The notes beneath the pieces were generated by a model. It made no database searches and was not told the DNA's origin. It worked only from the letters and a program-made list of their open reading frames with translations. Shown piece by piece: positions 6,001-60,000 of a stretch of DNA of 64,000 bases. Within the stretch, counting starts at the first letter, position 1. Every line of letters begins with the position of its first letter. The stretch covers positions 76,593 through 140,592 of the forward strand of contig CAYHBB010000040.1 of the NCBI GenBank assembly GCA_964354795.1, read 5' to 3'. A program made the position numbers and the translations under genes. Origin of the DNA: an uncultured Planctomycetales bacterium (lineage in GTDB: Bacteria > Omnitrophota > Gorgyraeia > Gygaellales > Profunditerraquicolaceae).

Positions 6001-9000
6001 CTCTGTTTCAAGCTTGCGAATAACCACTAATTTCGCGGTATCCTCATCTACAGCTAAGTCCAGGCGCCGGGTATCTAACCGTCCGAAAGTACCGAGGATA
6101 AGGTATCTTTTATTTTCCTCCCCAAAGCTAAGCACTAACTCTTCGCATGGTTCTGGGGCCAGAACAATCCCTACCGGCCTTTCCCTGTTGACCGCTATGC
6201 GCATTAGTTCCGCGATCATCCTGTTCCTGCGGGACCTGTCCTCAAAGAAGAACCTAAACAGGTCCTCCGTGAACGCATCAGGCCTGTTTTTCATCCAGAA
6301 GAACAGCTCATCAAAACTCTCCCATTTCAGATCTTCCACTTCCCAAGAGCCGGGATTAGCCTTATCAAGCCTGGCCATTTCCTCGGCGATCCTATCCGCG
6401 TTCCCCTGTAGCTCATAATGTATCTGTGCCAGCGTTTCCGCCCTTCCTTTTATCCTGGACATTTCTTCTTCGGTCATGGGCAGGATAAAAAACGCCCTTC
6501 TTTCCTTATTGGAATCAGTTTCTGAATCATAAATAAATTCCCCGGGGACTCCCACCGGAATAAGCCTCTGCTTTAATCTTTCCTTAAATGTATCTGTCAA
6601 CTCCTCTTGGTCATATATATGCATCTGCTTTGTGACTTTATTGACAACTGAATCCAAATAACTAAAACCCGCCTCCAGATGCCCGCCGAATATTGTCCAT
6701 AAGTGGGGGTATTTCTTGAATCCTGCGCGCTGCTGCAGGATAAGGCCAAAATCCGGGGTTACCAGGGCGACATTTGCGGTCCTGTGCCAAAGGCCGGCGG
6801 CTTCAGCGATATTCTTATCTGCCTGGCCGATTACCTTTTCTTGGCCGGTAGTTGAGTTAGGGTCCAAAATATCGATTATTCTTCCGCTAGGATATAGAAA
6901 CGCAGGGTCCTCCTGCGGCAGGCGCAGCCTTCTTACAATTTCTTCGATCTTTTCTGCTTCAACGCCCAAGGATTTAAGATTTTCTCTTACTTGATCCAAC
7001 GCGCAGGCGCCAAGAAGGGCCTCTTTGCTTTTTTGCGCTTCCTCCCTTTCGCCGTACAGCTCTTCGTAATGGTTCATGACGCCGTTCATGATGCCGGAGA
7101 TCTGCTCCATCGTAGTATCGAACGGCATCTCGCATGTTAACCCGAGGAGAAAACGGTCGCGGTGCGCAAAGCGATCCATAATGGAGGATACTTCAGCCGT
7201 CAGCTCGGCAGGATCTTTCGCGGGAGTTATCTGTGAAGCCATGATGTTACCGATAAGATAATTTCCGGAAGCGGTAAGGACTTCGTACGCCTTTTCGAGA
7301 TCGACCTCCTCGTCGATGCTGTAGGCGTCGACGTTAAGGCCGGTCATGTTCGACAAAAACGGCGTCGAATCGCCGCAACCGTGGAAAATGACACCGATGC
7401 CCTTCGCCTTCGCCGCGGCGGCTACGGCGTTCACACGCCGCGTGATGCAATCGTCGTAATACGACGGCGTCATGATGGCGGTCGAAGGCTCAAGGATGAC
7501 GATAGCGTCCGCGCCGGCCGCGGCATACGCCTCGGCCTCCTGAGCAGAGACCTTTACGCAATAATCGAGGAGCGCCCCGAATGTCTCGGGATCGTCAAGC
7601 ATCGCCATGGCGGCATCCGCTTCGCCCACCAGGCGCGCGGCGAGAGTGAACGGCCCGATCACGTAGCCGACCTTAGCGACCTTGTTGCCGTATTCCACGC
7701 TGAGCGCGGCCATGGCGTTTATGAATACGCCGGTGCGGCCGTCCCTGTCGATCATCGGAAGTTTCAGTTTCGCGATATTCTCCTTCGTCAGAGTAAACGC
7801 CGGCCCAAATAACCTGCCTTCCTGGTCGATATGTTTCGGCCCGAAAACGGACCGTACCGGAAGCGCGCCGCTCTCTTTATTCGCCTGATAAACGGCCTCC
7901 GGCCATGATGAAAGATCCATCATCGTAAATACTACGTCGAGCCTGAGAGAATCCTGGACGAACCGTATAACCTCAGCCTGCTTTGACGGATCGGTGGCAA
8001 GATCCTTTACCGAATAGTCTTTACGCTCGTGTTCGTTAAAAAATTTCACTCCGCCGAAACTTATAAGCGGCATCCACATGGCTCTATTGCGCATATCGTC
8101 AAAGGTGATCCTTGCGGCTTCGGGCGCCGGAGCCGCTTCGCCTTTATCGACCCTGCCCCCGTCCAACGTCTCGCGCACCACCGCCCCCAGCATGCAGGCG
8201 CCAAGGATTAGCGGCAGGCTGTTCGGCGCGACAAACGCCGCCAACGCGCCCAGCGCCACAAACTCAAGCAACGCAATCATGCCTTGGCCAGACGCAGGGG
8301 ACACCCTTTCGATTGGCTTGATGGGTGTCCCTTGATTGGGTTCATGGGTGTCCCCATCTTGACAGAAGGAAGAACGCAGGACATACACAAAGGTCTCTTC
8401 TTGGATAAATACAGGCGCTCCCTCGCCCATATCATTCCATTCGCGGGACTTGACTTGGCGCTTATACGGCCCAAACTTAAAATAAGAATGATTTTCCCTG
8501 CCGGAAAACTCCTTTATTTTACTTTCGATTACGCGCGAAGCCTCAACTGAACAATGATCATCCGGGAATACTGAATGCCGGAAAATAACCCTTGCCTGCG
8601 CGACGAGATACTCCTGGACATTCGCAAAGAAACATTCAACATGTTCCTTATATACATATCTGTACCCGCCGTCAACAGACCTATCCCAACCGTCGACTGG
8701 AGAAGGAGTAAAGACAATAAGGTTAAATCTCCTTCCTTCCAGCCCCTGGAATAGATCTCCGCAGACAAACTCAAGCCTGCCCGGATTTGCGTTATTGTAA
8801 CCTAAGCTTTCGGCATTGGCCCGGGCGCAATCGACCGCCGCCTCTTTTACATCTGTAAATGTCACATGGCCGGCTCCCCGGCTAAGCATGATCAATCCTA
8901 ATATGCCTGAACCCGTGCCCAGATCAAGGCAGCGCTGGCCCGAGATGTCCCTGCCTAAGCGCTTTGCGATCACCCCTGTCAGCATGCCGCTGGGGGTGTA

Positions 9001-30000: not shown

Positions 30001-33000
30001 CGTCCAGTCCGAAAAATCGGCCTTCTCCATCGAAGACCCCTCGGGGAAAAGCTTCATGATCAAGACCGTGCGGTCTTCAGCGGGCAGCTCGGCAAATAAG
30101 TGCGGAAAATCGTTTCTTATCCCGAATCTATGCAGCCGGTAATAGATTTCTGCCTGCGGGGATTCCTGCGGTTCAAACGAAAACGCATGGGGGGAAGTCT
30201 TCGGCTTAGAAACCAGCACAGCGCATCTTTTAAGATGGATCCCAGCTTTCAGGTATTTAAAGACCGCGAACATCCCTCCGTCATCAATAAAGCTGAAGCG
30301 CGAGCCATCCACGTCATATTCATGGCCCTCTTTAGGATTCCTGATGCATAAAGCCTTATGCGCGATCCTCGCCATTTCTTCATCACTGAAGGCGCCTGAG
30401 GAGATCATACCCATCATAGATAAGCCAAATACCGCTATTATCCCGGAATTTACAACAATCTCCGACACTAATAAAGCGCTAGCAACCAAGCCAAGCCCAA
30501 TAAAAATAAACAACCCAGATATGATCAAGTCTACGCGAAGTAAAGATTTGCTCTTTATCGTTTCTTGAATAACCCTCCCTAACAACAATTCTGCGAACAG
30601 TTCGATATTGTCGCATTGCGGATTAAGCGTTCTCAGTATTGAAGATGCTTCCGATAACATGCGTCTTTTTAGCTTATCTTTATCATGCCTGAATTCAGCA
30701 TGGTTTGAGTAAAGGAAATATTTATACGCCAGGCTGCCTATTACATCTATCTCCTTATCCTTTAGTTCTCTGACTATTTTATCCAGGCGTTCATTTAAGG
30801 CCTTTTTATGCAGGTATTGACTGATCAGTATTACACAGATAAACGCAATTAAAATACCAGCGACAAAATAGACGCAAGGATGGATTACGGCAAACGGCAA
30901 AATTGTAAATCCCATTGCGCCGGGATTATTATCTGACTTATAAAACTTACGCTTAAGCAACCATACAATAGGTATCAGGGAAGCTAATATTACGGCGAGA
31001 TTTTCCCGGATCTTCTCCCAGATTATCTGAATGATATCCGGCACTCCGGGTTTGCCTTCCTCCTCTATATTTATCTTCCTATCTCTCTCGACGTTTTTCT
31101 GCGCATTTTCAATAAGATTTCGCGCTGCCTGAGGGCAGGCGACCTGTTCGATCAAGCTACCCCCAAGCGTTACGAAATTACTGCCTTTCGCAAAATAAAC
31201 ATTATTGGTGCTGGCTGCTGAGCACAAAACCGATGTGAATAGAATGATGAACGCCGCGAAAATACTGTTTACTGCGCGGCAGGAATCGTTATCCGGCCCG
31301 TTGGCCACCGCCGCTTCCTTTATAATCTTTATTCTCTCCACAAAAAGAGAAGGCGAAGAGTCAAAATGGACAAATACTTTTCTGATGGCAGGAAGATGTA
31401 AATCTTCGGTTAGTTCTAATGTTCCTGAACTAAATCTGACGGCGTTCACAAAAAGGCGCGCCTTGCAGGCAACAGTTCCTTCTCTGGCCATGATCCGTTC
31501 ATATTCCACTTCCTGACCTACGGAGAAATCCAGTATTTCAAGCTGCTTAGAGGCTTCGGTGAATTCCGGTTTTGTTTCAGTAAGCTTCTTAGCTTCCCTG
31601 TGCGTTTTCTTTATTACGGCTTCTTGGTATCCATGGTAGGAGACTGCCTCAAGCGCAGTGGCGAGGTTGCCGTTGAATTTCTCGGAGAAATCATCGGCAA
31701 ATTCTTTGGAAGAGAAATATATTTCGAGGGCACCTTTGTATCTACGCTCCCAGATGAATTTCTTAAGCGGCGGCGCGCGCGGGTTCTGACTGGTGAAATA
31801 GAAGAACTTGACCGGCGTGATGCATATGGCCGCAGAGAATCCGTTGAATTCAGGAAGCGAAGCGAACGCGCGTTTACGGATCAGGGCCTTACACCCCTTT
31901 ACTTCATCATCGCATAAATTCCCGAAAAATCCGTGCTTTTGACCATCGGACCGCCCTTCTTCCCGACTACTGCCGCAATTGCCATTTAAATCTGTGTTGA
32001 CGCGCGACTGCGCAGCTCCGATCTTCACATATGAGCCCTCGCCCCGGCTTACATAATCTACTATCTTAGTGAATATTTCCCTGGCGCTAAGACCCTGCGC
32101 CCGGCAGAGAGTGTTCGTAAAATCTCCGATAACGATCATTTTCTCCTTTGCCCGGGAAAGTGATACGTTTATCCGCTGCAAGCCGTCCATGGTCTCAAGA
32201 AAACCGATATTCTTAAGCTCCCCTTCGCTGCCATATTTACTACGCACCATAGAAACTATCACTACCTTGTTCTCCTGTCCCTGGATAGCATCGATAGTAT
32301 TGACCATAACGTGTATCTTGTGCACATCTTCTTCGCTGAATAGCCTGCGGCCCTGTAAAGAAAGATCGAATTTCACAAACTTAAGGAACGAATACAGACT
32401 CGAGGGATAGGGGTCCTTGATGAAATTTACGATAAAGCTGCGGCCGCGCGGATTAGACATGGCCTCTATATCAACCCTCAAGCTTTCCCTCAAAACACTT
32501 TTATCCTCATCCGTAAGATTAACTTTAGATTGGCCACTGGAACGTATTTTATCGATTACTGACTTTAAACGAAGAGCCAGGACTATCTCTTCATTTTGCG
32601 CAGCATAGGGTGAGATAATCGTGACGTCCTCGAAACCGTAGCGCCAGCTCTCATCCGACTTTACCTGATTTAAGATCAATTCCAACTCGCGCAAAACCGT
32701 GCTTACTTCGCGGATATTATAAGAGGAGAAGTTAAGCTGTGCCTCGCGGCCTGCGATATCAATGAGCTTAAGCGTATCTTCCTCAGCTATCTCCTTATCC
32801 TGCGCCTCATGGTCGCGCGCAAACAACTGGCCATCGTAAAAGATATTCACCAGCCCGGTGATCAACGGATGCGAACGTCTGTTCACTCTAAGCAGGTGGT
32901 GATCAAGGGAAATTCCGCGGTCACGCTGAAGTTCAAATGCGCGCTGGAAAAGAGAAATCTTGAAACTCCAGAGGTTGTCAGGCAAGAATATTTCTTCAAG

Positions 33001-36000
33001 CGGCGGCAGGCTGAATCGCTGCTCGAGGGTCTTACCTTCCTGGCGCATGATCGCCGCCTCTTCGTGCACCATCGCCTCCATATCCTGGCTGACTCCGAAA
33101 GCGGGAAGCTGCATGTGGTCTCCGACCAGGACGATCTTTTCTCCTGCCATCAACACAGGAACGATCGTTTCGGCGATAGTGGCGCGGCCGGCTTCTTCGA
33201 TGATCACGATATCAAACCTTCTGAAGAAACCGTTCTGGCGGATAAATTTGTCATTAAGGAACCCGTTATTCGTCCCAAGGATGACAAAACCGGATTTCTT
33301 CTTAGCATACCCCTGCTCAAACTCACGCAGGCACCTCTCGCGGTTCTTCCAGTTGGCTTTTATCTCATCGCTTATCTTCTCCTCCTGATTGCCGACGCGT
33401 ACAAAGGGTATTTGCGCCCTGCTCAGGCGCTCGCCGATATTGTTCACAGCAGCGTTAGACTGAGATACCACAAGCACCCGCTTTCCGTATTTAATATAAT
33501 ATCTTACAATGTCAGTTATGGTGGTAGTCTTGCCTGTACCGGGAGGGCCCTGAATAAGTGTGACAGAAGGCTCAAGACTTATGCCGGAAAGTACCGCGTT
33601 TCTCTGAGAGACATCGCTACGTATCAATTCGCTCACCGAGTCGATGTTTCTATCCCGGAAATCTCCCGGCTTATCCTTTTTCAACCCAAAGAGTATATCT
33701 AGGTAAGGATTAGCCGTGGTAGCCTTGCCGCGCGCAATTGACGACTGTAATTCTCCTATGACGCTGTCAAAATCTTCCTTCTGCCTTAAAAGAGAGGTGT
33801 CTTCGACTCTCTTGATGAAGCCTTTTGACCTGATGCAAATTAGGGCGCGCTCTTTCTGCTCGATGTTATCAAATTTAAAGACGATACTATTATCTTCCGC
33901 ATTTACTCCGACGACTTCAAAATAGTCATCGGTAACGGTCTCGCCTTCAAAATCAAGAAAGACAAAGCTGTCGCCTATGCGAGCCACATCTTTTGAGCGT
34001 ACGGTTATCCCTTCGAGAGCCGCAACCCGGTTATCGGTCTTCAGACGAAGCCCCCGCACAGTGAATGTATCTTCGAACTCTCCCTTAGGTAAGGCGCAGG
34101 AAGAATACAAATATTTGAAGGAGCCGTAAACATTTTTGATCCTGCGCTGCCTGTGTTCGACAGCAGTCAGGAGCGCTGAGATGATTCTATAATGGGGAAT
34201 AAGAAGTCTTAAGGTAATATTCCCGAGGGCAACGCTCTGCGCTTTCGCAAAATCTTCGTAGCCGGAATTTTTCTTTATCAATTCCGAAGCAAAGGTAAAA
34301 ACGGTCTCAAACTCGCCCTGTTTATTCATCCCCTCGAGGACTCCCAGGATCTCAGCGCACACCATCCTTACTTCTGGGCCGAGTGAAAAAGCGGCTAAAT
34401 ACATATCTTTAGTCCTGACAAAATCATTCTCTTGCAGAGTTTTGCGCGCCTCTTTCAAGATAGCTTCTCTTTTTTCAATAAGAGACCTGGCCTCTTCGAT
34501 TAGTTTTGCGGCCCGATGGTCATCAGGGCAAATCTTCAGGATTTTCTCGGCCGACTTCAGCGCTTCATCGGGATTACGGCCGCACAGGCTTTGCGCGCGC
34601 TCAAAAAGCTCAATCTTCTGAAGGAATCTGGTGATTGTCTGGTCTTTATCCGAACCTGTTGCAGGATTAAGCGCCTGTGCTAGCCTGCGCGCTTCGGCAA
34701 GATTACCAGCAGAATACTGTTCCTGCGCCTCTGACATCGTGTTCACTGTTAAGTAGAAAGCATGCGCGGCGGTATCCTGGGCGTTAAGGCCAAGAGCAGT
34801 ATTAAGCCAATTCAGCGCCCGCTGATAGTCAAAAGTACTGTATGCCTGACGTGCTTCTACCATGAGGCTAAGTATCCTCTCTGAGCGTTCGATAAACCAG
34901 ACACATTCGCCTCTCTTCAGCGCCAGCTCTCCTTCTATGCCCAGATACGCCTTCGCATCAGAGATCACTTGCGGATAAGAGCCCGTCTGAAAAAGCTGTT
35001 CCAAACGTAAGAGCACGATATCCGCGTCTTGCGCGGCAAGGTTATTGATTTCCGTTTTAAAGCCCGCGAAGGAGCGGCGGATAGCCTTATTGCTTATCCT
35101 TTCAGCGTCTATCTCGCTTACAAAACGATAAAGTCCATTCGAGTAAAAATATCCCAATAGGTGCAATACCTCTTCTAGTCTCATACCGTTGGAATCTTTC
35201 CCCTCAAGCAGGCAAGGCAAGGCAGCGCACAGATAATCGACAAATGGTTTACTACGATTCATCACAAGAAACAAGATAATCAGCTTCTTTTCTTCCTGAG
35301 CAATAGAAACCTCGCAAAGCATGGGAAGCAGTGATTGGGTAATCCTTTCTTTGGCGGACTCAGGAAGAAAGATAAAAACCCTGGAAAAAGCGAAGAGCAA
35401 TGTGTCGACTACCTGGGGATCGGGATCAAGGCGCAAAAACATAAGCATTTCTCGCCTGATGGAGTCTTCCTGGCCGCTGCGAGCCAGGGCATAAAAACGG
35501 CAAACGCTTAAAGCGCAATAGAGCGGGAAATAACTCACAGGCAGCTTAGTAATATCGGCAACTCTTTCTTTGAGGCTCATAAAATCATCTTTGAATATAT
35601 CGTCAAACGCCGCAATCAAGGCCTTCCCGATATCGGGTAAATTTTGCTGCTTGGCGAATGCCTTACGGATACTTTCTGCCATGGAAGCGGCCTTTTCGGT
35701 TCCGAAATCATCTCCGGCATCCTCAAGCGACTTTGCGGTAAAAGCCATGAGGATTGCATGCAGGATAACAGCCTCAAACATAGCGGATTGCTGCGATATC
35801 ATTGATGCCATGAGGTCCGAAATATTCACCAGCACCTTAAGGTTATTGCCGGATAACTTATAAAACATTGCCAGCGACTCCCAGTCGTTTATCCGCACAG
35901 GTTCCTTCTCCTGCTTTTTATTATTTACAAAGGCTTCTCGGGACTGAACGAGCTTATACAGCTGGCTTTTGAAATTGATCATCCGGTTTGCGTTTGCGCT

Positions 36001-39000: not shown

Positions 39001-42000
39001 TTCCCTGGCGGTAAGAGTAGGCAACACAACTTCCAGCGCGCGCTCCAAAGCAGCTCTTCTTTGGGTGGAGAAATCAGGAATATTCTCCAACACCGCATCA
39101 AAAGAACCCAAAGGCATCATCTCCTGCTGGCTATAAACCTTAATATAAGCGCGGACTTCCGGAGTAAGTATGGATTTATTACGGAAAGATCCTACCTGGG
39201 CCTTGAGAGCCTCAAGTTCTGTAGATTGTCTTTCGTGGATATCGGAGACTTCTTTAATGAAGAAATCTATCACCTCTTTGGGATAACCTTTGTTCTTAAG
39301 GATCCCCCTTACCGTATCTTCCTGGCCTTCGATAAGCCAGCCTAAAACGTTATCAGCTATCTCAAATTCTTCCGGAGGCCCCTGCTCTTTGCCTGAATCC
39401 TCGATATATTGAGTTGCGATATCCAAAGCCATTTGCGAGAGAAGCGTAAACTCGTGGCGATATTGCGGATATAATTTTGCCCCAAAGCCCTGTCCCGCGG
39501 CGGTGATGGGGTGGGAAACGACCTCTTCCAAATGCCCGATACCCATGATCCTATACAGCGCAAATTTCGCCCATACCTGTAACTGCAAGGGTTCCTGCGG
39601 ATCCTTCATGATGTTTTCAAACAGCGTACGCGACCAATGGAGATACTGGCGGGAGCTTTCTTGATGCCACTTCAAAACAATAGATAAACATACGACCGCG
39701 TCTTTTCGCACCAGCGCATCGTTATCTTTATTGATGATGACCTTGAACAAGATATTCGCCAATCTGTCTTTTTCTGCATCTGTAATATAGTAAGACAGGC
39801 GGCCAAGGGCAAAAAGCTGAAAGCGAAGTTCGCAAAGCGTAAAGTTATCCAACCTGCCGTCTTCGCGTACACCCTGCTCGCATCCTACGAGACTCTCCAG
39901 CTTATCGATATATATAGGTATGTCTCTGCGGTGATAAAACAATCCCATAGGAGCCATCTCAATAGCGATCTCATAGAGGGAATGGCGGTAAGGCAGTTTT
40001 CCCTGCGTACGCTCCTGGTCTATCTGGGTAAACTTCATCAGGTATGGGTCTTTTTTGCGGACCAAAGAATCGGCCCTTTCAAAGATAGCGGAAGCGTGTT
40101 TACGTACCAAGTCGATCAGGTCAAAAGAAAAATCAGCCTCTGACTCAAGCCAATCCTCTAAAAGCGCCATTACCCGGTGCAATACCAGAATATCTATTTC
40201 ATCAGTGACATGGATACGGTAGAAATCAGAGTCCCGTAGGATAGCAGCGACACCGTTAGCGTGATTATGGCGGATGTCTTCGCGTGAACAACAGATGCCT
40301 CCGCCGTTAAGCAACTCTCCTGGAAGGTAGATTATCCCGTGTTTCTTTAATTCCGCCTGCAAAGAACGCTTAATGGCGTTATTCGCTCCTTCGGAAATAA
40401 TCAGACACTGCAATTTGGAAATCTGCGCGATATCACAAATAACATTGGCTGCCGCCGCCAGACACAATATAGTCGTCTTCTGGTATATAAGCTCATTTAC
40501 AATCGTGGCGTCCCCGAATACCGCTTTTACTCCACGAGAAACTAACCCCTCTGTCAGCTCTTTGATTTCGGCATCGCTAAAGACGTTTTTGCCCGTTTTG
40601 GGATTAAGGGGATTGGCTATCCAGATTGTCGAGTGCTCCAATCCGTCGAGATTCCGCATCCCCAATAAATTCTTCAGCGTCAGCTTATCCGGGTCAGCTT
40701 CGGCAATGCTGCGCGCCTCAAGGAGAAAATCTCTCGGCAAACCCTCCTCGCGGTAAATAGCAAAGAACTTATTGGAGAAACCGCGTATCTTGAAATTGAA
40801 TATGGAAAAAAGAGTCATAAGAAGCTTGGCCACGCCGCTGCCTACATCGCCAAATCCCTGAATGATCCAGCTGATACAATTAAAATCTATTTTCAGGTTC
40901 CTGATGAATTCAATCACTTCCGCAGGATAATAAGCGCTGGCATCCAAAATATGCTTTAACATCCTTAATGCGGTGACCGTACCCTGCACCACCCCACGGC
41001 TGGTGACCATCCAGGCGGTATGAGAAAATCCGCCTTCTGATTCCGGGTTGCTGGTTGTAGGCTTCAAAACCTCTTTTTCATCGATAGGCTTTATGCCTAA
41101 ACGCTGGGCATTGGCATTGATATCCCGGACGGTTTCTTTTGCAGTCCTGACCATAATACCCATGCGCCTGTCCACATCGCGCATCATATCGGGCCCGTCG
41201 ATAATCGCAAATCCTAAAAGGCGCGCAATAACCATAGCCCTGGTATATTCTTCAAAGACCTTATCTTCTTCAGCAAGGATCCTTGCCTTCTCTTCATCGC
41301 TTTGGCCGGGCTGCGAAGAAACGCTGGGGCCTAAACGCGTGATGCGGTCTCCGCCCTTACCCATCAATAATCCCATATCATAAATATCCTGCGGGCCGTA
41401 AAGCACAGGCATACCTATCCAATTATCCTTATCCTGGATAGCGAAGGTAGTCTTCTTTCCGTGATAAGGGATTTCCCAGATTGCATTCTTATATTCCATG
41501 GAATTGGCCAGCTGGGAGCCTTCATGGGCGAGCCCGAGCTTACTACGCGGATCAAGGATAATATTGACCTCTTTTAAGACTCCGCGGCCGACGAAAACAA
41601 TAAGCAGCGGGTTTTTGTCCAACGGGCAATTCCTGAAGATTTCGCCTTTGAGCGCGATGGCGATAGGTAAGTTTTTTTCTTTCCTGTACGCGTCATCAGT
41701 CGTGTCTACAATGACATTTGCCTCTATCTCTTCCGCGGTCAGGTCTAATTTTTCTCCTAGCTTAAAGATATTAATGATAGACTGGATGAGTTGTTCTCTA
41801 TCAGCCTGCATATTGCAAAAATCAAGAAGCGACAGTTCTTCTTTATTACTTATTCGGGTAAGGTTTGCTTCTATTTCTAGCTTTGCGCCTTCGGAAAACT
41901 TTTTACGCTCAGGCAAAGATTTACCTCTATGCATTACTTTGCGGATTAACTCCTCGATCTCGGTGTTTGTATCGTGCTGGGTCCGCAAGGCCAAAGACGC

Positions 42001-45000
42001 AAACTCATGCGCCAGGCGCGCCTGGAGTTCCAAAGGATCGGCATATTCATCTGCTTTTGTCAATATAATGACCTCTTTTTTATCCGGATGGATTACTGCC
42101 CTGATCTGGGTGCCCAGGTAAAGAGTCTCTGCGTCTACGCTCATCCCCTGCCCGCCACGGACAGAGACCTGATAAATCGCATAACCTTCGATCGCCTTTT
42201 TAACAAAAGCTTCCTCTATATTGATACGCTGTGACTTTAAGGCACTAACCAGGGACGATACTGTCTGGTCTATCAATTCTCTGCCGGTTTCCTCCCTCCG
42301 GTAAACGCCGCAAAGCGTAAACAGCCGCCTTACTTCCTGCGCGCTTAATTCTTTATCCGCGCAGGATAGATCCTTACTATCAACGCTAGCGGAAGACTCC
42401 AGTTTAGATGTTTCCCCCGTATTGCCGTGATCCAGGTTGAACATTTGGGCTACCGCAGGAAGATAATCTTTCTCAAGCGTAGAGCGTATGCGGGCTTCGT
42501 CTTTCTCCAGTATCTTTATATAACGGTAAGCGCTTAAGTCGTCGCTCCTGTTTTTCACATGGTGCATTACGGCTTGCGTATAAGCCTGGATATCAGGCTT
42601 GGCAATATCAATGCCCATATTCATTATTTTATTTCTTGTGGCAAGCGAGACAAGATTAAAATAGGGATCGGATACGATCAATCTCTGAAGAGAAAGCATA
42701 GCCATGGCCCAGGCGACGATCTCTTCCTGTACCCTGCTTTTAAGAAGCGCCTTTTCGTCATGCCTTACGGGATCAGCAGGGTGCATAGCAGCAAAATCCT
42801 GAAAGATAGCGCGCGCCCACATGTGGCCGATGATCTCATGAATGATATCGAATTCCTTTATCTCCTCTTTTATTACCCACCCGGCGTCTCTTTTCTCCAA
42901 AGCGCTCTTATCAATGAAAAGATAGACTTTGCCTTCATCCGAAGTGAATAATTTCGCCTTAAAGCGCGGATATACGCTTCCTAATTGGGCAGAAGTATCC
43001 ACAGCCAGGATTTCCGGCAAAGGAACTTCATCAACAGACTCAGCTAAAACACCCAAACAGCTTCTGACGTAGCCTGTCAGGCTTAATGTATCAACCGGTT
43101 CGCTGAAGAAAGTATTATTCAGCAATTGCCTGTCAAGCCTGGCTCGCTGAAACGGCGATAACGCACAAGCCTTAGCGGCCTTTGCCTCATGGCGCTCGGG
43201 ATGGCTGTTCACCATCTTGATAAAACTAAGGATCCCAAATTTAAGGGTTGTGATCTTTTTCTCATAAACCACGGGATCGTGCTCTATCTTTTCGTGCAAG
43301 GGGCCCTGCAAGTATTCCGATGGCAGAATAATCGAATGAGCATTCTTTCGGGGCGCAGAACAGTGCAGGATACTTTCCGCTGTAATAGAAGTAACAGGGA
43401 TGCCGTAAACACCGTTAGCCAGATGACTGAAACAGGCATCCTGAGCAAGGACTGTAGTGGCTATACCTAAAATATTATGTATGTAAGGCTGGATCCCCTC
43501 TTTTTTGGGCACAAGGATCTGGCTTTGGGCAGCCGTGTTCTTATTACGCATCTCATTCCGGGCTCCCTCTACAACTTTTTGCAAATAATCATTGCAGGCT
43601 TCTGCCTGCCTTCCCCAGCCGCAGGTAAACACAAGATAAGCGCCTTTTATATCGCGCGCAAGCGCGATAATCACACCCATCCATTCTTCGGGTTCTAGTA
43701 AGCTGCGCTTGGATATATCGGCCGCATATAAGTTTATGATGACCACTTTTTTCGTAGGGTCAAAAGCTCCTAATGAGCCACCACTATTGCATTCGTCAAA
43801 TAATCTCTTCATCCAATCCAGGGCGATGATCGACTCTTCGATGCCGTATTGTATTGCGGGCATATTTTCTACGGTTACATCCAGGCCCAGGATACCGTAA
43901 GTCTCAATAGGAAGAAGCCAGATGCCAGTTGGCTTCAGCAGCCATTCAGACGCCACATCATTACTGATCCCGGATTTACTGGCGACTTTCCCGATCAGCT
44001 CTTCCATCCCCGATACATTATAAAGACAGCCTTCGCGGTCTAAAAATGTCGGATGATAATACCCGTAGATAGCGGGGCTCATCAGGCCAGGGTTCAAAGA
44101 CGAAATATTCGACAGCGGAGCGAACAGCCTGACGACATAAGGAGATTTTCTATTGATTGAATTGCCGGATCCCGCAAGCCAATTAAAATTTCCTTCCCCT
44201 CTGCCGATATCTATAATGTCGATCACCATATCGATCTCATGATCAAGTAAGACGGTTTTTAACTCTACGTCAAAAGGCTTATTGTCCTTTTTGCATTGCT
44301 CCCTTATTTCTCGCGACGAAGGTATCAGCTGGATCTTACCGGTAAATTGCCTGGCTATGAAAATATCCGGCAGGTCTGAGGCCAGATATATAGTGGCATC
44401 CGGAAACTTCTTCATCAATCCGGTCACCAGCGGCCAGAGAGTGATAGTCTCCTCTTCGAGATCAGATATGATCAGCGTCTTAAAGTCAGCAAAAACAAGA
44501 ATCTTCTTGATTTCTTCAGAAGGGATCTGCGCAAGCGGCTTGCTGATTGTCTTTTTCTCCCCTTCGTTGCTAGATGCCTGTATCAGAGCGCCCAGCAAAC
44601 CAAAAACAAGCAAAGATGCAGGATGAACCAATCCCGCGATAACCGCCCCTAAAGCAAAAACCGCAAGGATTATCTGCAAGGTGCGGGTCGATGAAGAATC
44701 TTGCGCGCTGCGTGCTTTTTGTTCGGCCGCTGCGGAGGCCTTATTTGAAGCCCCGCTGGAAAGCGACTTTTGCTCCCCACCAGCCACGGAAGGTAGAGCT
44801 AGGTCATTGTTATCCTTTCCAGCGGAGCAAGGCAAATCTATACAATCCCCATCCCTTTGCTCGCTTTCGCTCGCAAGGGACGCCTTCGCCCCTTCCGGGG
44901 CTCGGCAGCCAGCCACGGAAGGTAGAAGATCGCCTTTTTCAATTCTTTGCAACGGGGCATGACAAGTCTTTACGGGCCCCATCCTTTCAGATACATTCAT

Positions 45001-48000: not shown

Positions 48001-51000
48001 AGTGTCTTTTGCGTTCTCGGGGATCACAAAAATAGCATCTTTGCCAGATCTACGGTCCCGGATCCCGCCAAAAATCTCGAAATTAAGGACAGCTACAATC
48101 CGGGCGGGTAAATTTAGCGATAATGATCTAAAGACATCCGGGTCGCCTAAACGCAATCTATCTAAGCTTAGGTTCTCTTCATGGGTTATTGGGAATAACA
48201 CTGCCTGGATTTCGTGAGCGATGGTTTGAACTGAGGCATTTACAGGATGAACAATAAGCGGCTTTGTTCCGACAGGGGTATCCAAAAGCACAATGCAGGC
48301 ACCGATATCCCAGCCGTCAGGCGCACGGGCATAATGGATGCCGCGGGCCTGCTCCAGTTCGTCGAATCTGCTACGATTAATGCCAAAACGTTTTGCAAAC
48401 AAATTACGCGCATCCTCAAGAATATCGCTATCTTTGTATATCCCTGCGCGAATAGAATCAATGCCGAATTTATGCGCGTAAGCATCGACGAGCGCGGCAT
48501 CAAGGCCGTTTTCCGAGCGGTCAACAGGCCGCTGATCTATTACGCACTCATCGTTTACCCTTGCTGAGTAACTTTGAGAAAGGATCACACAGAGAGTGTT
48601 TTCGCTCCTATGGATCTTTATCTCGGAAAAGCGGGTTTGAATATCCTCCTGCTCTTCCAGAGGAACGGACAAGCTCCTGCGTATATTTAATATAGTGGTA
48701 TTGTCTTCCGCCCTTTCCCTATCAAGGTCATAAAGGAAATTTATGATATCGATCTTTTCTTTCATATCCGGATCTCGGCTGATATATTTCCACAATCCGT
48801 AAATGAACCTGAGCGCCACAACCATATTCCCGTCTTCGGCGAGCCACCGCAGATCCCATACGCCGCGGCGGATACTCACCCGGCTTAAGAAAGCGATGAA
48901 TTCACCATCGCTGAGGAACTTCACCACATCCTCAGGGAGATTCTTATGCCTGGCGATCTCAGATAAAGAACCCCGCCACTCCTCGCCGTCAAATGTGCCT
49001 AGATCAGCGGCCACCCCGCCTTGTCCTGTAAGCCCGGCAAAAAGCCTTATCTTTGCCCAGTTTTCTTTCATCCTTGAATATGTGGAGAACCGTCCGAGGC
49101 TGGAAAGAAAAACGATGCTGCGTATGTGCCCGGCGCTTACCGTATTTTTCGCCTTTGAGACGACCCATGTGGCGGAAACTATAGATGCCAGCTTTGTGAA
49201 TCTGTACCAGTTGGCAAGATACGCATTATCAAGACTAAGCTCCCATCGCTTCTCAGCTTTATTTTCACTCAGTGAAATATTTAACCCTCGTTCTTTCAGA
49301 TTACGCAGGATCTCTTCGAAGCGCATACGCTCATCTGTGAGCCTGTTTATTTCGTCAAACGATGTATTTCGGAATATTTCAGCTATCGGTTCGGAACTAA
49401 AAGGAGCCAACGCGGAAGGAGCACTAAATCTTATCCACTCGATCTCTCCTTCTTCCTTATTGCCTGCAAGGTGTTCTTCGGCCCTGGCCAAGACGCGGCT
49501 TAAAAGAAATATCATTTTGACCAGCGAATCCGGGTCAAGTGACTGCAAAAAGAATATGCAAGAATCAATCACCCTCACAGGCGTATGCTCGGGATTGTCA
49601 AAATATTTACGTATCAAAGCGAAACTATCCGGCTGCTTCTGTTTTATATCTTCCAGCAGCGCCTTCGCTTTCTCGTACTTAGCCGAAGATGGCGGAAGGC
49701 CTTCTCTTGTGGAAGAGAATATCTTTAACCTGTAATCAAGAAGCTGCCTGCCGAATTCTTCGGACAAATAATCTTTCGCATTTTTAGCGCCCATTAGCCC
49801 GCTAAAAAACTTTGTCTTGTCGCCAGAAAGCCCCATGCCCTTTCCTGAAGCATAGATATCAGCAAGATTAAGAAGAGACAGGACTTTTATTGCCAGGGAG
49901 TCCGGCTCGTAATTAAGGCTGTCCCGGGAAAGCACCCTATACGTCCTTTCGCCGAAATGTATGGTCCCCAGATCAACGTGATGAAATATTGCCCATGCCG
50001 CCAGTTTTATCTGTTCGTCGGAGAACCTATCCTCCTGAGGGAGAAAACCGTTTATCGCATTAATGATCCCCGAGACAATAGGAGCCCCTGCTTCTGCGTG
50101 ATGCGGACTCTTTGAGGGCTCTCCGATATCATGCAACAAAGCGATCAAATATACCAGCCTGCGCATTGTCAACGCATTGCCTGCGGCAAAGATCTCTTTA
50201 AGCGCGTCACGGAACATCCTAAAAGACGATTCGAAAACAAGATCCCCTTCTTTATCTTTGTTGATCGCGGCCAGATCATCATTCTCGCCTTTGTCCAGCG
50301 CGTTAATGAATACGGCCGCGCCTAAAGAATGCTCAAAGATATTCTGCTTAAAACTACCGCTCTGGAATTTTATCCCCTTCTTAAGCTCGATCATCTTCGG
50401 GAACAGTTTTTCTATTACTTCCCGATTTTGCGCAAATGCGACATCGCGGCTATCAAGCACTTGAATGAAAGCTGTCACGTCTTTTTCGTCCCATAAAACG
50501 CAAGCCTGCCCTTCTTTGCCCGGGGCAGGGCCCGGCTTTTGGCCGGCGGCCTTCGGATCTACAGGTTTTACGGCTGGCGCAGTGGGCTTAAGCCTTTTTT
50601 CTAATTCCGCCTTGAGCCTGCTAAAGTGCTGCTCCATATATATAGGAGAGCCTTCGCCAAAGAATAAAGTCCCGAAATCCCTGTGCAATGTAGTCAGGCC
50701 CATGATCGTCTGCATTTCATCTGATTTTATTCCGCGCTCTTTTCCGTAGACATCCGAACTCGATAGGGTTTTAAGAAAATGAGGCAGGAACTCCCAGTTA
50801 TCCAACGATTCATCCCGGTATAAAAGACGGGTGTAGAGAAGAAGTATGACAGAGACCCATAATATCTTCTTCATAGAAGGCTGGGAAATAATAGCCTTGT
50901 ACGTAACGATAAAACTTTCAACATCTTCTGCCAAAGGCGCGAGGCTTTCGGAAAGGCTGTATTTTCTAAGATACGAGGTCAGGTCTTCTATACGCAACGC

Positions 51001-54000: not shown

Positions 54001-57000
54001 TATTCTGGAAATCAATTCTACAAACGCGAGGGAATTATATCTTACTTCTGAAGCGGCTATCTTATGCAGTTCTACTGCGCTATATTTATTATTGGCGACC
54101 CTGGCCTTGGCCAAAGTAGCCAGGAGGATCGCGAAAAGATGCAAGGGGTATTGCGGGCGGGTGTCCTGCGGATAGACAATATTCTGGTTTCCGCGGATGC
54201 CGGCAGTAGATTTCTCCGCCTCATCCTTGTATTTCGTTAACCATCTTTTTAAGCCCAATCCTTCAGGATTATTCTTCTCATCAAAATCAGATAAATGCGC
54301 TTTGGTTAACGTAACCTTAAACTCACCGGGATTTGATAAATCTATCCGGGAATTATTCTTTACGTGCGCGGGAGTCCTCTCTTCTATGTCGAGCAACAAC
54401 TCCCGCTCTAAAGCGCGGGCCCTTTCATTATCAGAGCGGCCCGATACCACAACCATGCCCAACAGGCCAAGAAGGATAAATGATGTGGGATGAACCAATG
54501 CAGCTAAAGCAGCAATACTGAAGAAGAAAATAATGGGTAAGACAGAACGCAATACGAGAGCTGAAGGAGCATTAGTTTCAAGCCAGAATAAAACTCCGTT
54601 AGTAGAAACCGACAGGTCTTCATTAAAACGGTAGCTGTATACTTTGCCGGAGGTGTGCACTTGGATCGCGCGCGGTTTAGTAAGGCGTATATTTACGTTT
54701 ACAATATCGTTATCAGACAGGCCGAATCTTTCTTTGGCATCCTGCGTTACCAAGACTTTTAACCTTTCAATGCGCTTTTCATATTCCGTGATAAGACGGT
54801 CGATTGCAGCGTCATGTAATTTAGAAGTGACTCTGCCGGAGAATGTCGAATTATTATTTCCTTTAGCAGTCTCGTGCCAGACCGTTTCATATAAGCGCAT
54901 CCATGTTTTACTGAATCCAGCAGCCTTATTCGGCGCCGTATTCTTCAAGGCAAAGACCGCTGCTACTAAGAATAAGGCGACCGCCCCCATTACGATCAAT
55001 AGTTTATTGCTGATCTTCCCCGACGTTTTGGTTTGCCGGTTGTCAGCCGCCGAATCCCTGGCAAAAGAAACATCTCCCTTTTGATAAAGCATATAGGCGC
55101 CTTCGGTCAACTCATTATCTTTTAATTTCTCGGGCGAGGTATTGGTCTTAACCAGGCGCAAATAATCAAGGAAGCCCTTACTTGGCAAAGTCACATCCTG
55201 CATGTAAAGGTATCCGCCCTCTCTTGTGCAAGAAAAGATATTGCCGTAATACTTATCCGCGGATCCGTCCCTGGCGAGCTTCCCTCCCAGGCCGGGGAAT
55301 TTCACGATAGTAAGGTCGCTTGCTCCTTTTAAGAAATCAAGCGGCTGGGTGCAATCTTTACGATGGAAATGCACAGTGACTTTTCTCGCAAATAATCCGG
55401 ATCTATACCTAATCTCGACTTCTATTATATCTAGGGTAGGATATTTGTAGGTGAAAGAGTAATTGAAACTGTCGCCGGTGAAATTGGGGATATGGTTATG
55501 GAAGAACCCGGTAATAGTTTCCATTGAATACTGGTCTTCATTATCCACCAGATGCACATCTGTTACTGTCGGGATGTTCCTGATGATTTCATAAGGCAGG
55601 GAGTAGTCCCAGCCGCAGGCAAGATAAAGGATGGTTTTTACTTCGCCGTCCGGTATCAGCTTCCAGACAGCTTCCCGGGCGTTTGTTTTTTCCGGGCCTG
55701 CGCGGCTTTCCTTGCCGCGGCTCTCTGCAAATCTCCTGAACGCGCTAACAGCGCTGGCAATAATTCTGCGCAGGCCCCGGTAGAAATCTGCATCAAAGAG
55801 CATGCCAGGGAAAGAGTAGAGCTTTGAGGATAAGGGATTGCCTTCAGAAGGTAAAACAAACCTCAGGCGGACCTTTACATGCGCGCCTTCCTTTAATAAA
55901 GCGATGATTTCCTTTGGAGCTAAATTTTGCTGCCAGGCACCCTCCACTAAAGAAGCCTCTAACACCACCGCTTCTGTGTCTTTCAGGTAGCTGACCACGG
56001 AACTAAGCAAGGCTACTGTAGGATGGCTGAAATTTATGCTTGAGACCTTGCCTCTTAGTTCACCTATCATCCATTTAAAAACTCTGCTGCCCAGCCCCTG
56101 CCTCCTTGCTACCCGGCCGTATCCTATGGCCCTTCCAAAAATAAGAAGGTCAAAACTTGCTTCCCCTTCTTTGGCTCTGGGCAATACCAGGTCCAAATGC
56201 CCCATTTCCTTATAGTTTTCGGCTCTATTCTCCTGGCCCCTATTTGTATTAAGGTAAATATAATCAAAATAATGCGATGCGTTGCTGTCGGCAATGTCGG
56301 CCATATGCCTGTGGAGCTCAAGCTCCCCCTCTATTGAACAGACAATACTTATTTCCAGACCTCTGACATCTACCTTGGCCGGCCCCAGCTTAAACATAGC
56401 TATGTGCTCTTTTTTCCCGGATATTTTTCCCATCTTCTGATAAAGATTCCGCGCGTAGTGATGGGGAACATTTAATTTTTCTCTGAATGAAGATTTTTCG
56501 TCTTCCCAGACCAACATATTTATGACTTCAGGATATTGAGTCTCCAACCCCCTGTCGCTTACCATAATGCTGGCTAAAAGATATATTTCAAAACCTGAAT
56601 ACCTATCGGACCTGATCTTCTTGACCCAAATCTTTACTTTTAGCTCCGTTGACTCGGATAGATCATCGGAGAGAGGCAAGCTGCTGATAATACCCACATA
56701 GTCGTAATGAAGGGCGCAGTTGCAGCTACATTGATTGCCGTTGCCACCGAGGCTATCTTCGATAGCCAGGTCCATTAATATGCTGACGATCAGCTCTTTC
56801 CTTTCAGGGCCGCTATGCGTGAAGAATCTGGCTATTTGCCGGCCTTTATCAAAGACAAAATTGCCCATCCAGGCTTTCAGCCAATTCTTAACTATATCTT
56901 TCTCGATCTCCTTGCCCGCGCCTTTTAAATATCCGATCAATTCTTCATTGCCCATGATCCTTTCATTGCCCATTTTTATCGCTTCAAATTTATCGCGCAG

Positions 57001-60000
57001 CTCCTTGAGTGAACCGGTCAATTCCTCAACAGATACCCTTGTCTCTTGAGGAAGGTGTAAAACGTTACCAGGATGCTGCTCAAAAAAGACGATCATATCT
57101 GCGATATTTGCCAAGGCTTTGGCGGCATTCTGCACAAAAATAGGGTTTCCTCCGCGAGAAGCATTGACCACTATTTCAACTTGATTTGCCAACAAAGGCA
57201 TGATTTCTTTAATTGATCTAATGCCCCCGCTTATCTGGCTGTTAATGTTGCCTACTACATCCTCGTTTATCTGGCCGCTCATTTCCTTAAGGCAAGGGTC
57301 TCTTACTTTCTCAAACAGCTCCGCGATCTTCTCGTCTGTTTCCATGACATCAAAATCTGGATTATTTACCGCCATCCCCAATAGGCCTAACATAAGTAGC
57401 GATACAGGCTGGACAAAGACAGCTTGCCCTTCGGCAAGACTCAGGGCAAGCATGGCTCCGACGGCCAACATAAACACCCACTTTGAAAGCGCTTTCCTGA
57501 GATTTAAAAATAAAAGGCTACGGTAAGATCCGGGAGGAAGCGAATAGCAGCTCTCCTCCCAAGTCTTATTGGTAGATAAGATCGCGCTTATCAATAAGTA
57601 TTGACTTGACCTTGGCCATGAGGATATCCTTGAGTTCCTGGCTGGCCCGTAGCCAGACGCCGTCTGCGGTTTTCCCCCTGACTGTTCCGTCGGGCTCGAC
57701 AAGGAAACAAAATTCAGACCACCAGAGAGGATGTTTAACAAATACGAAGAGATTTTTTGTATCAGGCAAGATGCGGATGATTTCCAATTCCTGTAAATTG
57801 ACCATTTTGTTACCTCCTTATTATTTTTGGCCGCTGCCAAGGATTTAAGTAAAGCCCCGTTGCAAAACGACAAATCTTCCCCACCAGCCACGGAAGGTAG
57901 AAGATTGCCTTTTTCAATTCTTTGCAACGGAGCATGACAAGTCTTTAGCGCCCTGATTAATAAAAATCCTAAACCCGGTGTAAATAATCCGTAGAATCCT
58001 GAATCGCTCCTTAATGCGGCCTTGGCCTGGCCCGGAGCAGAAAACAGGATGAAACATCCGATAAATGTAAGGTTCGAGATGGCCTGGCCGGTCAATAACC
58101 AACCGAAGAGAATAAAGCCTAAAGCGCATGCCCTGCTTATCCCCAATGTTATCCGCGTAGCCATATAACTGCCGAGATGCAGCTTAGAAACCAAAACGGC
58201 TCTCAGTATCCTTCCCCCGTCTGTAGGAAATACAGGAAGAAGGTTCAGGGCCGCTAAAATCAAATTAATGTAGGCAATGCTGCTTAAGATCTGTGCCCAG
58301 CTGCTGACCCCTATAGTAAAGGTAAGGCCCCCGGGCACAAGCCAGAAACTGAGCGCGAACAATAACGGCGCCAGTAAGATATTCACCAATGGACCGGCAA
58401 ACGCGATGCTCATCTGCTCCCTGGGAGTGCGGCCAACCCCCTGCATGCGGGCGAATCCGCCGATGATCGTCAAGAGGACATCGTTGGTCCTGATATGGTA
58501 TTTGCGCGCCTTCAAGATATGCCCAAACTCATGCAAAGTCACTAAGCTGAATATGGCAGCGTAAAGAACCAGTCCCGGCAATCCCCATGCGTTAATCGCA
58601 AGGAACAGGCCCAGATAAAGGCTCCAGTGCGCTCTTACGGGGACTCCTTTTACGGTAAAGAGGGTGATATTCAATCTATCAAGAACACCATTCAAATTTC
58701 CATTCAGGGAAGCTGACAGCAGCGGAATCGGTAATCCTAGACAGGCAAAAGCAGCGCCCGAACAATCGCTCCTTAAACCTTCCAATAAATTCTTAAAGGC
58801 GCTTTCTTCGATATTACTCTTACCCATATCGTGCTCTATGTCTTCAGCAGTGGCCCGTTCATATTTTTCCCTGTTATCAGCCAGAGCAAACCCGTCCAGC
58901 TCATGGGTCCCCAGGACAGGGGAAAGCCTGTATTCCTGCGTCCTTATCACCGTAGGCCAGATATAAATGAAATCCCCCAGCATGGAAACTGAATGTTCAA
59001 TATTTTGAGATTGAAGCGCGGATACGCACTTCATAAAGGCGGATTTGAATCTTTCCGTGCCATCTGCCTTCATGCAGATCACAGATAAAGGATAATCAGT
59101 GAGTACATATACCTCGGCTCCCTGAGCCTCGAAGGCGGCTTTTCTGGCAGCGCTTTCCACGGGCAGAGAACAATCATAATAATTTGCCTGTATGTGCAGA
59201 TGGAAGACAGAAGCTAATTTCCCGGGATTTATGCCCAATTTTAATCTTGGGGAGCGGGATAATCTCCTTATTGCCAGCATTGTCTCAAGGGCCGCCTCGC
59301 TGACCTGCTGCGGAAATTCTTTTTCGGGCTCAGGAACGATTACAATGTGGTACTTAAAGGAAGCATTCTTATTGATATCTACAGCGATATGCCTTGCGTC
59401 TATCACTAAATCCAGGAGCCTCCTTACAGGGCCCTCTTCCTTCAGGAATTTATTAAAATTCTTATTGGGATCGAACTTTAAAACATCAATGTTAGAGCTG
59501 CTCTTTCCGGTATTGCGCGCCTTCTTCGCATTATCGTAATCTGCGCGTCCGGAATTGAACCTCATCATCCACCTGCCTACTTCCCTGGTCTCGGTAATGT
59601 AAGGGTCATACGCGAATACCCCGGGCTGATGCGCCCTTATATCCCAAAGCTCCTGAACCGTAGTATCAAAATCTAATACTCCCTCCACAATCAGCCTTCC
59701 CAGTATCCAGCTCGCCTGCCCTTGAGAAATTTCATCGATAGCCCTGATAAATTCCTTCTGCCAATCGCTCACTCTTTGCTCGGATTCACGAAAGACCATA
59801 TCCTGGTAAAGATTCAGGATTATCTGGGTCTTTAATTCCTCGCTCAGGACGCTGTTCTTTCTCAAGACTTCTTTGACCTGCGCTGCCTTGACTGCTTCTG
59901 AGGCCTCGCTAGGTTGCGCGCGATTGTCATTGAAACCATCAGGATTATTATTGTGCCACTCCCAGGCGCTTCTGATTATGTCTTTAATCCCCATTGTCGG

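Follow-up and report, generated by a model that had tools for sequence, protein, structure and literature searches.

Can a small gene lie out of frame within one of the giant open reading frames (ORFs) of the Candidatus Omnitrophota and be translated on its own, and how does the giant frame fare at such a place? The question was raised by a stretch of 64,000 nucleotides (nt) of the Omnitrophota contig CAYHBB010000040.1, the whole of which is referred to as the window in the following. A single minus-strand frame stays open throughout this window and, at one site, a 79-codon ORF in another frame of the same strand follows a strong ribosome-binding site (RBS). An inspection of the letters alone, the sequence-only reading, had proposed three explanations: a genuinely overlapping nested gene, a programmed frameshift or recoding site, or a junction between two giant ORFs that happens to remain open in the main frame. 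We find the first of these to be the right one with good confidence: the 79-codon ORF is very probably a genuine, separately initiated protein-coding gene that overprints a linker of a giant multi-enzyme ORF in the -1 frame. The host frame, the nested gene and their immediate surroundings comprise the following parts:

1-64000, minus strand: giant stop-free ORF of the multi-enzyme type, at least 21,333 codons, overrunning both ends of the window.
58189-58560 (about), minus strand: Peptidase_M50 module (PF02163, E 1.6e-19, giant-frame amino acids 1814-1937), directly upstream of the nested gene.
57818-57823, minus strand: TAATAA, two small-frame stops that abut the Shine-Dalgarno (SD) sequence and shut the small frame upstream.
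57812-57819, minus strand: SD sequence AAGGAGGT, 6 nt before the ATG, including GGAGGT at 57812-57817.
57566-57848, minus strand: giant frame across the overlap, open, rich in serine and atypical in codon usage.
57566-57805, minus strand: nested small gene with ATG at 57803-57805, 79 codons and TAA at 57566-57568, in the -1 frame relative to the giant ORF.
57364-57495, minus strand: hydrophobic (predicted membrane) segments of the giant frame from a Kyte-Doolittle scan, 25-68 amino acids (aa) past the small ORF's stop.

The giant frame, whose codons start at positions 63999-3k, contains not a single stop over 21,333 codons, while each of the remaining five frames has 623-1,565 of them. More than 25 distinct and unrelated Pfam families tile the polypeptide and none of them dominates; Epimerase (three times), GDP_Man_Dehyd, Peptidase_M50, PGM, HD, ELFV_dehydrog, AAA_11/12 and Response_reg are joined by PAS, URO-D, Bac_transf (sugar transferase) and CheB. 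Dozens of ordinary cytoplasmic-type enzymes are fused in this way with signaling domains. The ORF exceeds 10,000 stop-free codons and matches the 'multi-enzyme metabolic cluster' class of Omnitrophota giant proteins (10.64898/2026.06.07.730766). A strong SD sequence with an ATG in the giant frame was found nowhere in the 64 kb.

Within this host, the small ORF is complete from start to stop, lies on the same strand and wholly within the larger ORF, and is read in a different frame. Its translation begins MVNLQELEIIRILPD..., and the six bases between GGAGGT and the ATG read AACAAA. The succession of TAATAA, GGAGGT, 6 nt and ATG was thus present with all its parts at the coordinates that had been claimed for them, and the location of the site between the M50 module and the hydrophobic segments was confirmed as well. 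The strand carries 32 AGGAGG or GGAGGT hexamers in sense orientation over the whole window, and only the one at the small ORF is followed, after 4-9 nt, by an ATG that opens 50 codons or more; one other hexamer is followed by an ATG at this distance and opens an ORF of 18 codons. No sigma-70-like minus-strand promoter was detected by an internal promoter scan of positions 56800-58400.

The giant frame had been described as serine-rich and not protein-like at this place, and this description was accurate. Serine makes up 24% of the giant-frame peptide across the overlap, compared with 6.7% of the giant frame as a whole. When a codon model trained on the giant frame was slid along the window, an off-frame outscored the giant frame by 8.8 nats at 57461-57820, and the only other off-frame advantage in 64 kb was a marginal blip of 0.5 nats at 8531-8770. 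We read the giant-frame peptide of the overlap as a tolerated linker of the giant protein. We then held the 79-aa sequence fixed and redrew its synonymous codons from the usage of the giant gene. Under this scheme 6.2 stops are expected in the giant frame across the overlap and none is observed, with a probability of 1.8e-4 for a stop-free stretch.

The small protein belongs to a family. A profile of three close sequences retrieved 54 representatives at E<1e-3 among 1.84 billion protein cluster representatives. About 40 of the 54 are full-length (71-105 aa), with W28, F34, G40, G44 and W51 as common residues, and the protein of the window matches the hidden Markov model (HMM) of the family with an E value of 5e-33. 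Relatives stem mostly from metagenome-assembled genomes (MAGs) of Candidatus Omnitrophota and, in some cases, of Planctomycetota. AlphaFold2, provided with an alignment of 41 sequences, returned a model of five beta-strands and a C-terminal helix with a mean predicted local distance difference test score (pLDDT) of 89.8. The small protein is therefore predicted to be a compact beta-sheet-plus-helix domain, a type that is common in protein-protein interaction and in inhibitor or immunity modules. Searches of Pfam, NCBIfam, PADLOC and PHROGs gave no significant match, Foldseek with the model against the PDB gave nothing at E<0.001, and the matches obtained in structure searches were generic only. 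Judged by sequence, this is a previously unannotated, conserved family that is linked to giant genes. As a separate observation, family positions 43-75 have a weak profile likeness to the RecA C-terminal domain (GxGKxxxxxWLxxxxExxxxIxxKVxxLL), which is non-significant at E 0.2-0.8 against single RecA chains.

The nested arrangement recurs throughout this family. The small ORF is nested in a long stop-free ORF in 40 of the 41 family loci that we examined, and the giant frame lies at +1 in every nested case. Loci in GTDB, with one genome per GTDB species, were found by a hand-made degenerate DNA pattern of the family motif. DNA patterns that were derived from the close homologues only had no match in GTDB. 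The degenerate pattern yielded 36 loci, of which the family HMM confirmed 32, almost all of them from MAGs of Candidatus Omnitrophota and Planctomycetota. A run of N interrupts one of the confirmed loci, hence 31 could be assessed in fetched pieces of 8 kb. The +1 frame is long in all 31 and open over the entire 8-kb piece in 29, extending from the small ORF by as much as 7.6 kb in the upstream and 7 kb in the downstream direction, while the +2 frame shuts within tens of bases. Three further loci (L006, L007 and L011) have a +1 frame that crosses the small ORF with no stop and runs on into a long downstream ORF. In L007, which is from an NCBI Omnitrophica MAG, the annotation places a gene of at least 9,482 aa 53 nt past the small gene. 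Five more metagenome loci, found independently by way of a conserved hairpin that is described below, have the same +1 relation.

The absence of stops at these loci is not what the small protein's own sequence would lead one to expect. Across the overlap there are no giant-frame stops in 35 of 35 loci, where a mean of 4.1 is expected (median P 0.003, summed log10 P -86.5), and the third frame has 1-13 stops per locus over the same stretch. With about four stops expected at each locus and none found at any, the suggestion that the junction stays open by chance was abandoned. The signals of the small ORF recur along with its frame. An SD sequence matching at least 7 nt of AAGGAGGTGA at 4-8 nt before the ATG is present in 27 of the 35 loci, and in about half of the family loci a small-frame stop precedes the ATG by 12-21 nt; nested copies have 74-97 codons, and all three stop codons serve as their terminators. 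Conservation of the 79-aa ORF and of its RBS in homologous loci, which the sequence-only reading had named as a check, was found on both counts. The same layout speaks against a sequencing or assembly artefact, in which two compensating indels would have shifted part of the giant protein into the wrong frame and which had been named as the finding that would overturn a nested gene. It recurs in more than 40 independent loci from different samples, assemblers and phyla, and we regard an artefact as already refuted and its probability as negligible.

The modules that surround the small ORF vary from locus to locus. Upstream, the giant frame encodes phosphorylase, ARMT1-like, HEAT, HATPase, M20, radical SAM and PEP-utilizers domains, and downstream PPDK_N, TPR, GGDEF, AlaDH, Fic and PGM. 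When the flanks of the window (700 aa upstream, 900 aa downstream) were searched with jackhmmer, only L001, L004 and L005 were recovered together with a partial match in the distant L022, and the Peptidase_M50 module upstream of the small ORF is conserved only in the close relative L004. Since heterogeneous enzyme domains flank the other loci, we rejected the M50 module as part of a cassette. Copies of the family are single in the 64 kb of the window and in each fetched locus, and the sole repeat is formed by L028 and L040. These are two different family members on non-overlapping 8-kb pieces of one Omnitrophota contig, JAPLLR010000046.1 (132,931 nt). One genome, or possibly one giant ORF, can therefore hold more than one nested copy.

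Close relatives of the window allowed us to look at selection in the two frames. The 79-aa protein is identical on three contigs from three other samples (L001-L003), and close homologues are present in L004 (80% identical) and L005 (75% identical); each of these five contigs has a frame that is free of stops throughout and in register with the giant frame of the window. Counted by the codon positions of the small frame, the nucleotide differences over the overlap amount to [15,2,24] against L004 and [16,7,36] against L005, and a third comparison with a close homologue gave [16,6,36]. Across the overlap, the small frame shares 74-80% of its amino acids with the homologues, compared with 54-70% for the giant frame. 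Over 1.5 kb downstream of the overlap, the differences between the window and L005 favor the third position of the giant frame, [24,19,55]. The three-base periodicity of the differences switches frames downstream of the overlap. Purifying selection on the amino-acid sequence therefore falls on the small frame within the overlap and on the giant frame beyond it, and within the overlap the giant frame is selected only for staying open. At the level of such comparisons, the start signal, the start position and the stop position are shown to be conserved and both frames to be under selection. It is on this purifying selection in the small frame, together with a giant frame held open in about 40 diverged loci, that the genuinely overlapping gene of the sequence-only reading was upheld.

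The relatives differ from the window in their modules, too. Upstream of the shared segment, positions 1-225 of L003 consist of GC-rich sequence that reads, in another frame and with a stop, as a PEP-utilising/PPDK-like N-terminus; the 'giant' frame is still open there. This upstream part is either the product of a chimeric short contig or a different upstream module. Between L004 (715-1258) and the window (approximately 55700-57560) there is a modular in-frame indel: about 590 aa located past the overlap in the window are missing from L004.

Three elements follow the small ORF's stop:

57518-57575, minus strand: long hairpin with the core GGGAGGA...TCCTCCC, whose 5' arm holds the stop of the small ORF (-31.4 kcal/mol, z -2.1 to -2.4).
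57503-57517, minus strand: U-rich tract CCUUUUAUUUUUAAA, directly after the hairpin, conserved among close relatives only.
57485-57496, minus strand: palindrome GAAAGCGCTTTC, read as K-A-L-S in the giant frame.

L001, L004 and L005 have retained the hairpin, and one of its pairs has changed in a compensatory way. We rejected it as a universal feature because a z value below -1 was obtained in only about 35% (about one third) of the family loci. Relatives of the palindrome, namely (G/A)AAGCG(C/G)TTTC, AAAGCGGTTTC and AAACGCTTTC, were seen by eye 10-100 nt past the stop in many family loci. At these elements the giant frame always reads K-[AT]-[LV]-S, and a signal at the peptide level is as possible as one at the nucleic-acid level. 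In L001 (approximately 380-440), an additional 54 nt (18 codons) lie past the palindrome as a modular in-frame indel.

The hairpin has a bearing on programmed frameshifting or recoding, by which ribosomes in the giant frame would shift by -1 near the SD sequence, giving an isoform with the 79-aa domain at its end, or ribosomes on the small ORF would shift by +1 before its stop and go on in the giant frame. An internal SD-like element combined with a downstream hairpin is the type of stimulator that is used by dnaX and prfB. The site of the small ORF has both components, and the window has in addition a run of A near the SD sequence (CAAAAAU, ACAAAAUG). However, the search for slippery heptamers around the overlap found no X XXY YYZ, there is no conserved slippery site before the ATG or the stop, and the sequences from the SD to the ATG and before the stop differ between loci. 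TAATAA shuts the small frame right up to the SD sequence, the hairpin is limited to about 35% of the loci, and the terminators include all three stop codons. With kilobases of open giant frame on either side and no termination past the site, no shift is needed, and a shift near either end would not explain why the giant frame lacks stops along the whole small ORF. Hence the frameshift was dropped as highly improbable.

What follows the stop also bears on the possibility that two giant genes meet here and that the small ORF is a coupling leader, on which ribosomes are loaded through the strong SD sequence that then terminate and reinitiate on the downstream giant gene, with upstream read-through being incidental. 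Gene callers and the NCBI annotation split the locus in this manner (L007, L011, L002 and L005), a plausible GAGGAG-GTG start is located past the small ORF in L007, and purine-rich SD-like sequence is often found past the stop. A main-frame start codon past the stop is not conserved, however, and pure loading of ribosomes does not need a conserved, foldable amino-acid sequence. Moreover, no stop interrupts the giant frame along the small ORF or in the kilobases upstream, where it encodes real enzyme domains, and an upstream gene without a stop cannot end there. A gene boundary of this kind is improbable in our view, and we retain the nested gene within one continuous giant frame.

A second hairpin type is located on the other side of the small ORF:

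57857-57930, minus strand: conserved hairpin with the invariant top ACCUUCCGUGGCUGGUGGGG, the lower stem AAUCUUC/GAAGAUU and the outer stem CCGUUGCAAA/UUUGCAACGG (48.5 bits with a covariance model).
44765-44806, minus strand: second copy of this hairpin, 12.8 kb downstream in the giant ORF, with the 23-mer of its top at 44774-44796 and the compensatory outer stem CCGCUGGAAAG/CUUUCCAGCGG.
44908-44923, minus strand: weak third match.

The invariant top corresponds to the 23-mer CTACCTTCCGTGGCTGGTGGGGA at 57878-57900, 88 nt upstream of the small ORF's ATG. The chance expectation for the exact 23-mer is 0, and with 0-1 mismatches it is present in six GTDB family loci and in L003, a near-identical copy of the locus of the window. 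The lower stem covaries with a score of 0.423, compared with 0.234 in shuffles (0/500) and at most 0.228 in slid controls, and the outer stem often takes the form GGCYGCUGCGG...CCGCAGCRGCC. Conservation of the 23-mer extends to synonymous positions, and its copies are found in each of the three frames with respect to the giant frame; it is therefore a nucleic-acid element, and on the same grounds LPSVAGG, one of its translations, was rejected as a double-glycine cleavage site. The hairpin is stop-free in all three frames and lies on the sense strand when it is inside giant ORFs. In the window and in L003 it resides on an indel of about 135 nt (57826-57960; 45 in-frame codons, ...GFYGLFTPGLGFLLIRALKTCHAPLQRIEKGNLLPSVAGGEDLSFCNGALLKSLAAAKNN) that is missing from the 80%-identical L004 (approximately 400-470).

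At the small-ORF loci we counted 17 significant matches to the hairpin model, most of them within about 200 nt of the small ORF and four at a distance of 0.7-12.8 kb. When hairpins were sampled on their own in metagenomes, 32 of 37 were on the sense strand of stop-free frames that span the locus and five were outside giant ORFs. Only five of the 37 independently sampled copies lie within 400 nt of a small ORF, and a hairpin specific to the nested gene was rejected. Since metagenome sampling found it mostly away from small ORFs, the hairpin is a separate and more numerous genome element that is enriched near the nested gene and occasionally intergenic. Loci with the hairpin beyond the window are L014, L016, L017, L024-L026, L029, L032, L037, L039, L040, L042 and L046 as well as L048-L082. 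Rfam returned for positions 56500-58800 a sole, chance-level match to mir-955 (E 0.2) and none for the conserved hairpin. It could serve in pausing, antitermination or protein binding, or it could be a small mobile repeat.

Several observations weigh against a conserved overprinted gene on a giant transcript that is read through. First, the family member P0055 (loci L008-L010) is situated among ordinary genes and has no overlapping open frame. It is the single clear exception, and nesting is therefore not obligatory for the family protein. Second, the stretch after the small ORF's stop, where the predicted fold consists of a stem followed by CCUUUUAUUUUU, resembles an intrinsic terminator. A terminator consensus scan gave no call; if active, such a hairpin with its U-rich tract would oppose read-through transcription of the giant gene. 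Third, the small ORF is 25% diverged at the nucleotide level between the window and L005 (1-240), while the next 1.6 kb are diverged by only about 6%, which suggests an allele replacement or recombination confined to the nested gene. Fourth, five contigs (L001, L002, L005, L007 and L011) end inside the nested gene or at most about 100 nt upstream of it, suggesting structural heterogeneity at the strain level or a repeat that breaks assemblies there. Taken together, the divergence pattern and the contig breaks hint at recombination or structural heterogeneity that is outside the overprinting model.

The last two observations would also be expected if the small gene, with its SD sequence and often a hairpin, were a selfish or mobile cassette that inserts into giant ORFs and is tolerated because it keeps the host frame open, much like inteins or stop-free repeats, with a protein that serves the element. 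The flanking modules are non-homologous across loci, the small ORF has diverged within a background that is 94% identical, contigs break just upstream of it, and the adjacent conserved hairpin, stop-free in three frames, is an indel between close relatives. In addition, a study of Omnitrophota genomes reports many hypervariable loci with mobile cargo (10.64898/2026.06.07.730766). However, the small gene is present once in 64 kb and once per fetched locus, one contig with two different members aside. Database searches with the small protein revealed no recombinase or nuclease signature, and 79 aa are too few for one. Target-site duplications were not established, and viral contigs that were scanned for the family gave 0 matches. 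The constant frame and the deep divergence fit vertical inheritance with shuffling of the modules around the small gene equally well. We consider a mobile cassette unlikely, although it may have had a part in the origin and spread of the small gene.

Other ORFs of the window run antisense to the giant gene on the plus strand, namely 32809-33702 (297 aa), 48803-49735 (310 aa) and 41498-42121 (207 aa). Two of the plus-strand frames have only about half as many stops as the third, and the long antisense ORFs are probably shadow ORFs of codon bias.

In phages, out-of-frame nesting of genes on the same strand is accepted; bacterial cases are rare, have a narrow distribution and are doubted as a rule. 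One bacterial example is comS of Bacillus subtilis, a small ORF nested out of frame within srfAB of the surfactin synthetase operon. The likeness to our case consists in a small ORF with its own RBS inside a very large multi-modular gene, on the same strand and in another frame (cf. PMC12915044, PMC8160284), and in an expression of the small protein that is tied to the transcription of the large gene. The differences are considerable. ComS has no sequence relationship to the 79-aa family, and no similarity of the small protein to the ComS family or to any annotated family was found in Pfam, NCBIfam, PADLOC and PHROGs. While ComS has 46 aa and is restricted to Bacillus, the small-protein family has about 71-105 aa and extends across Omnitrophota and Planctomycetota MAGs. 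The host in the srfA operon is a nonribosomal peptide synthetase and is overlapped in a catalytic domain, whereas the host in the window is a stop-free ORF of at least 21,000 codons of unrelated enzymes and is overlapped in a low-complexity linker. GndA inside gnd of Escherichia coli resembles the small ORF in that out-of-frame initiation within the host mRNA gives an independent small protein (PMC11230408; 10.1101/520783). Known cases of this type have fewer than 50 aa and a narrow distribution, whereas a foldable 79-aa domain, a consensus SD sequence and a deeply conserved layout are found here.

Immunity genes offer another comparison. In CdiA-CT/CdiI and Rhs systems they follow the toxin's stop and encode hypervariable proteins, whereas the small ORF is overprinted and its product belongs to one HMM-detectable family. 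A polymorphic toxin-immunity pair was rejected, as Peptidase_M50 and other ordinary enzymes, varying by locus, are located upstream and no toxin domains were found there. The host resembles the giant proteins already described from Omnitrophota (Nielsen & Lui 2026; West-Roberts et al. 2023) in that it exceeds 10,000 aa, contains dozens of unrelated Pfam enzyme and signaling domains and has hydrophobic segments that separate the modules. Term searches of these two preprints gave no mention of a nested gene, an internal RBS or frame-switched coding, and giant ORFs with a nested gene were not described in any text that a full-text literature search returned. A same-strand gene nested out of frame is a known kind of feature; this family, its host and the breadth of its conservation are not.

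Given these findings, we propose that ribosomes in the giant frame would read straight across the 240 bases and produce a Ser-rich, unconstrained spacer for which the sole requirement would be the lack of a stop codon. Other ribosomes would initiate at AAGGAGGT, 6 nt and ATG on the same mRNA, make a free protein of about 9 kDa and end at the TAA; we infer that this initiation takes place internally on the giant mRNA. Together with its dual-coding stretch, the small gene behaves as one conserved cassette in the giant ORFs of Omnitrophota and Planctomycetota, constant in frame and with variable modules around it. By analogy with comS inside srfA, overprinting would guarantee that the small partner is co-transcribed and co-inherited, and the small protein may act with its giant host protein, or on the expression or assembly of this protein, as a trans-acting partner. 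More tentatively, the protein of about 79 aa, often accompanied by the invariant hairpin, might be a dedicated cis-encoded factor that giant ORFs need for expression, processing or assembly, and as such a hallmark of this gene class and the most widely conserved same-strand overlapping gene pair that is known from bacteria. This is a possibility to which we give rather less than even chances. Such a factor could bind the nascent giant chain or its mRNA.

For a bacterial overlapping gene the comparative evidence is unusually clean: in about 40 diverged loci, which come from two phyla, selection acts on two frames at once. The host is of a class that, with ORFs of 20,000 to more than 100,000 codons, is the most extreme known among bacterial genes. 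A gene caller that retains the small gene splits the host ORF; some giant ORFs are therefore cut in two by annotation pipelines, and published lengths of giant proteins may be underestimates. Whether the transcript and the protein of a giant gene act as one unit or as several is an open question in the literature (West-Roberts et al. 2023). The nested site would provide a precise place at which read-through of the giant ORFs can be distinguished from separate translation.

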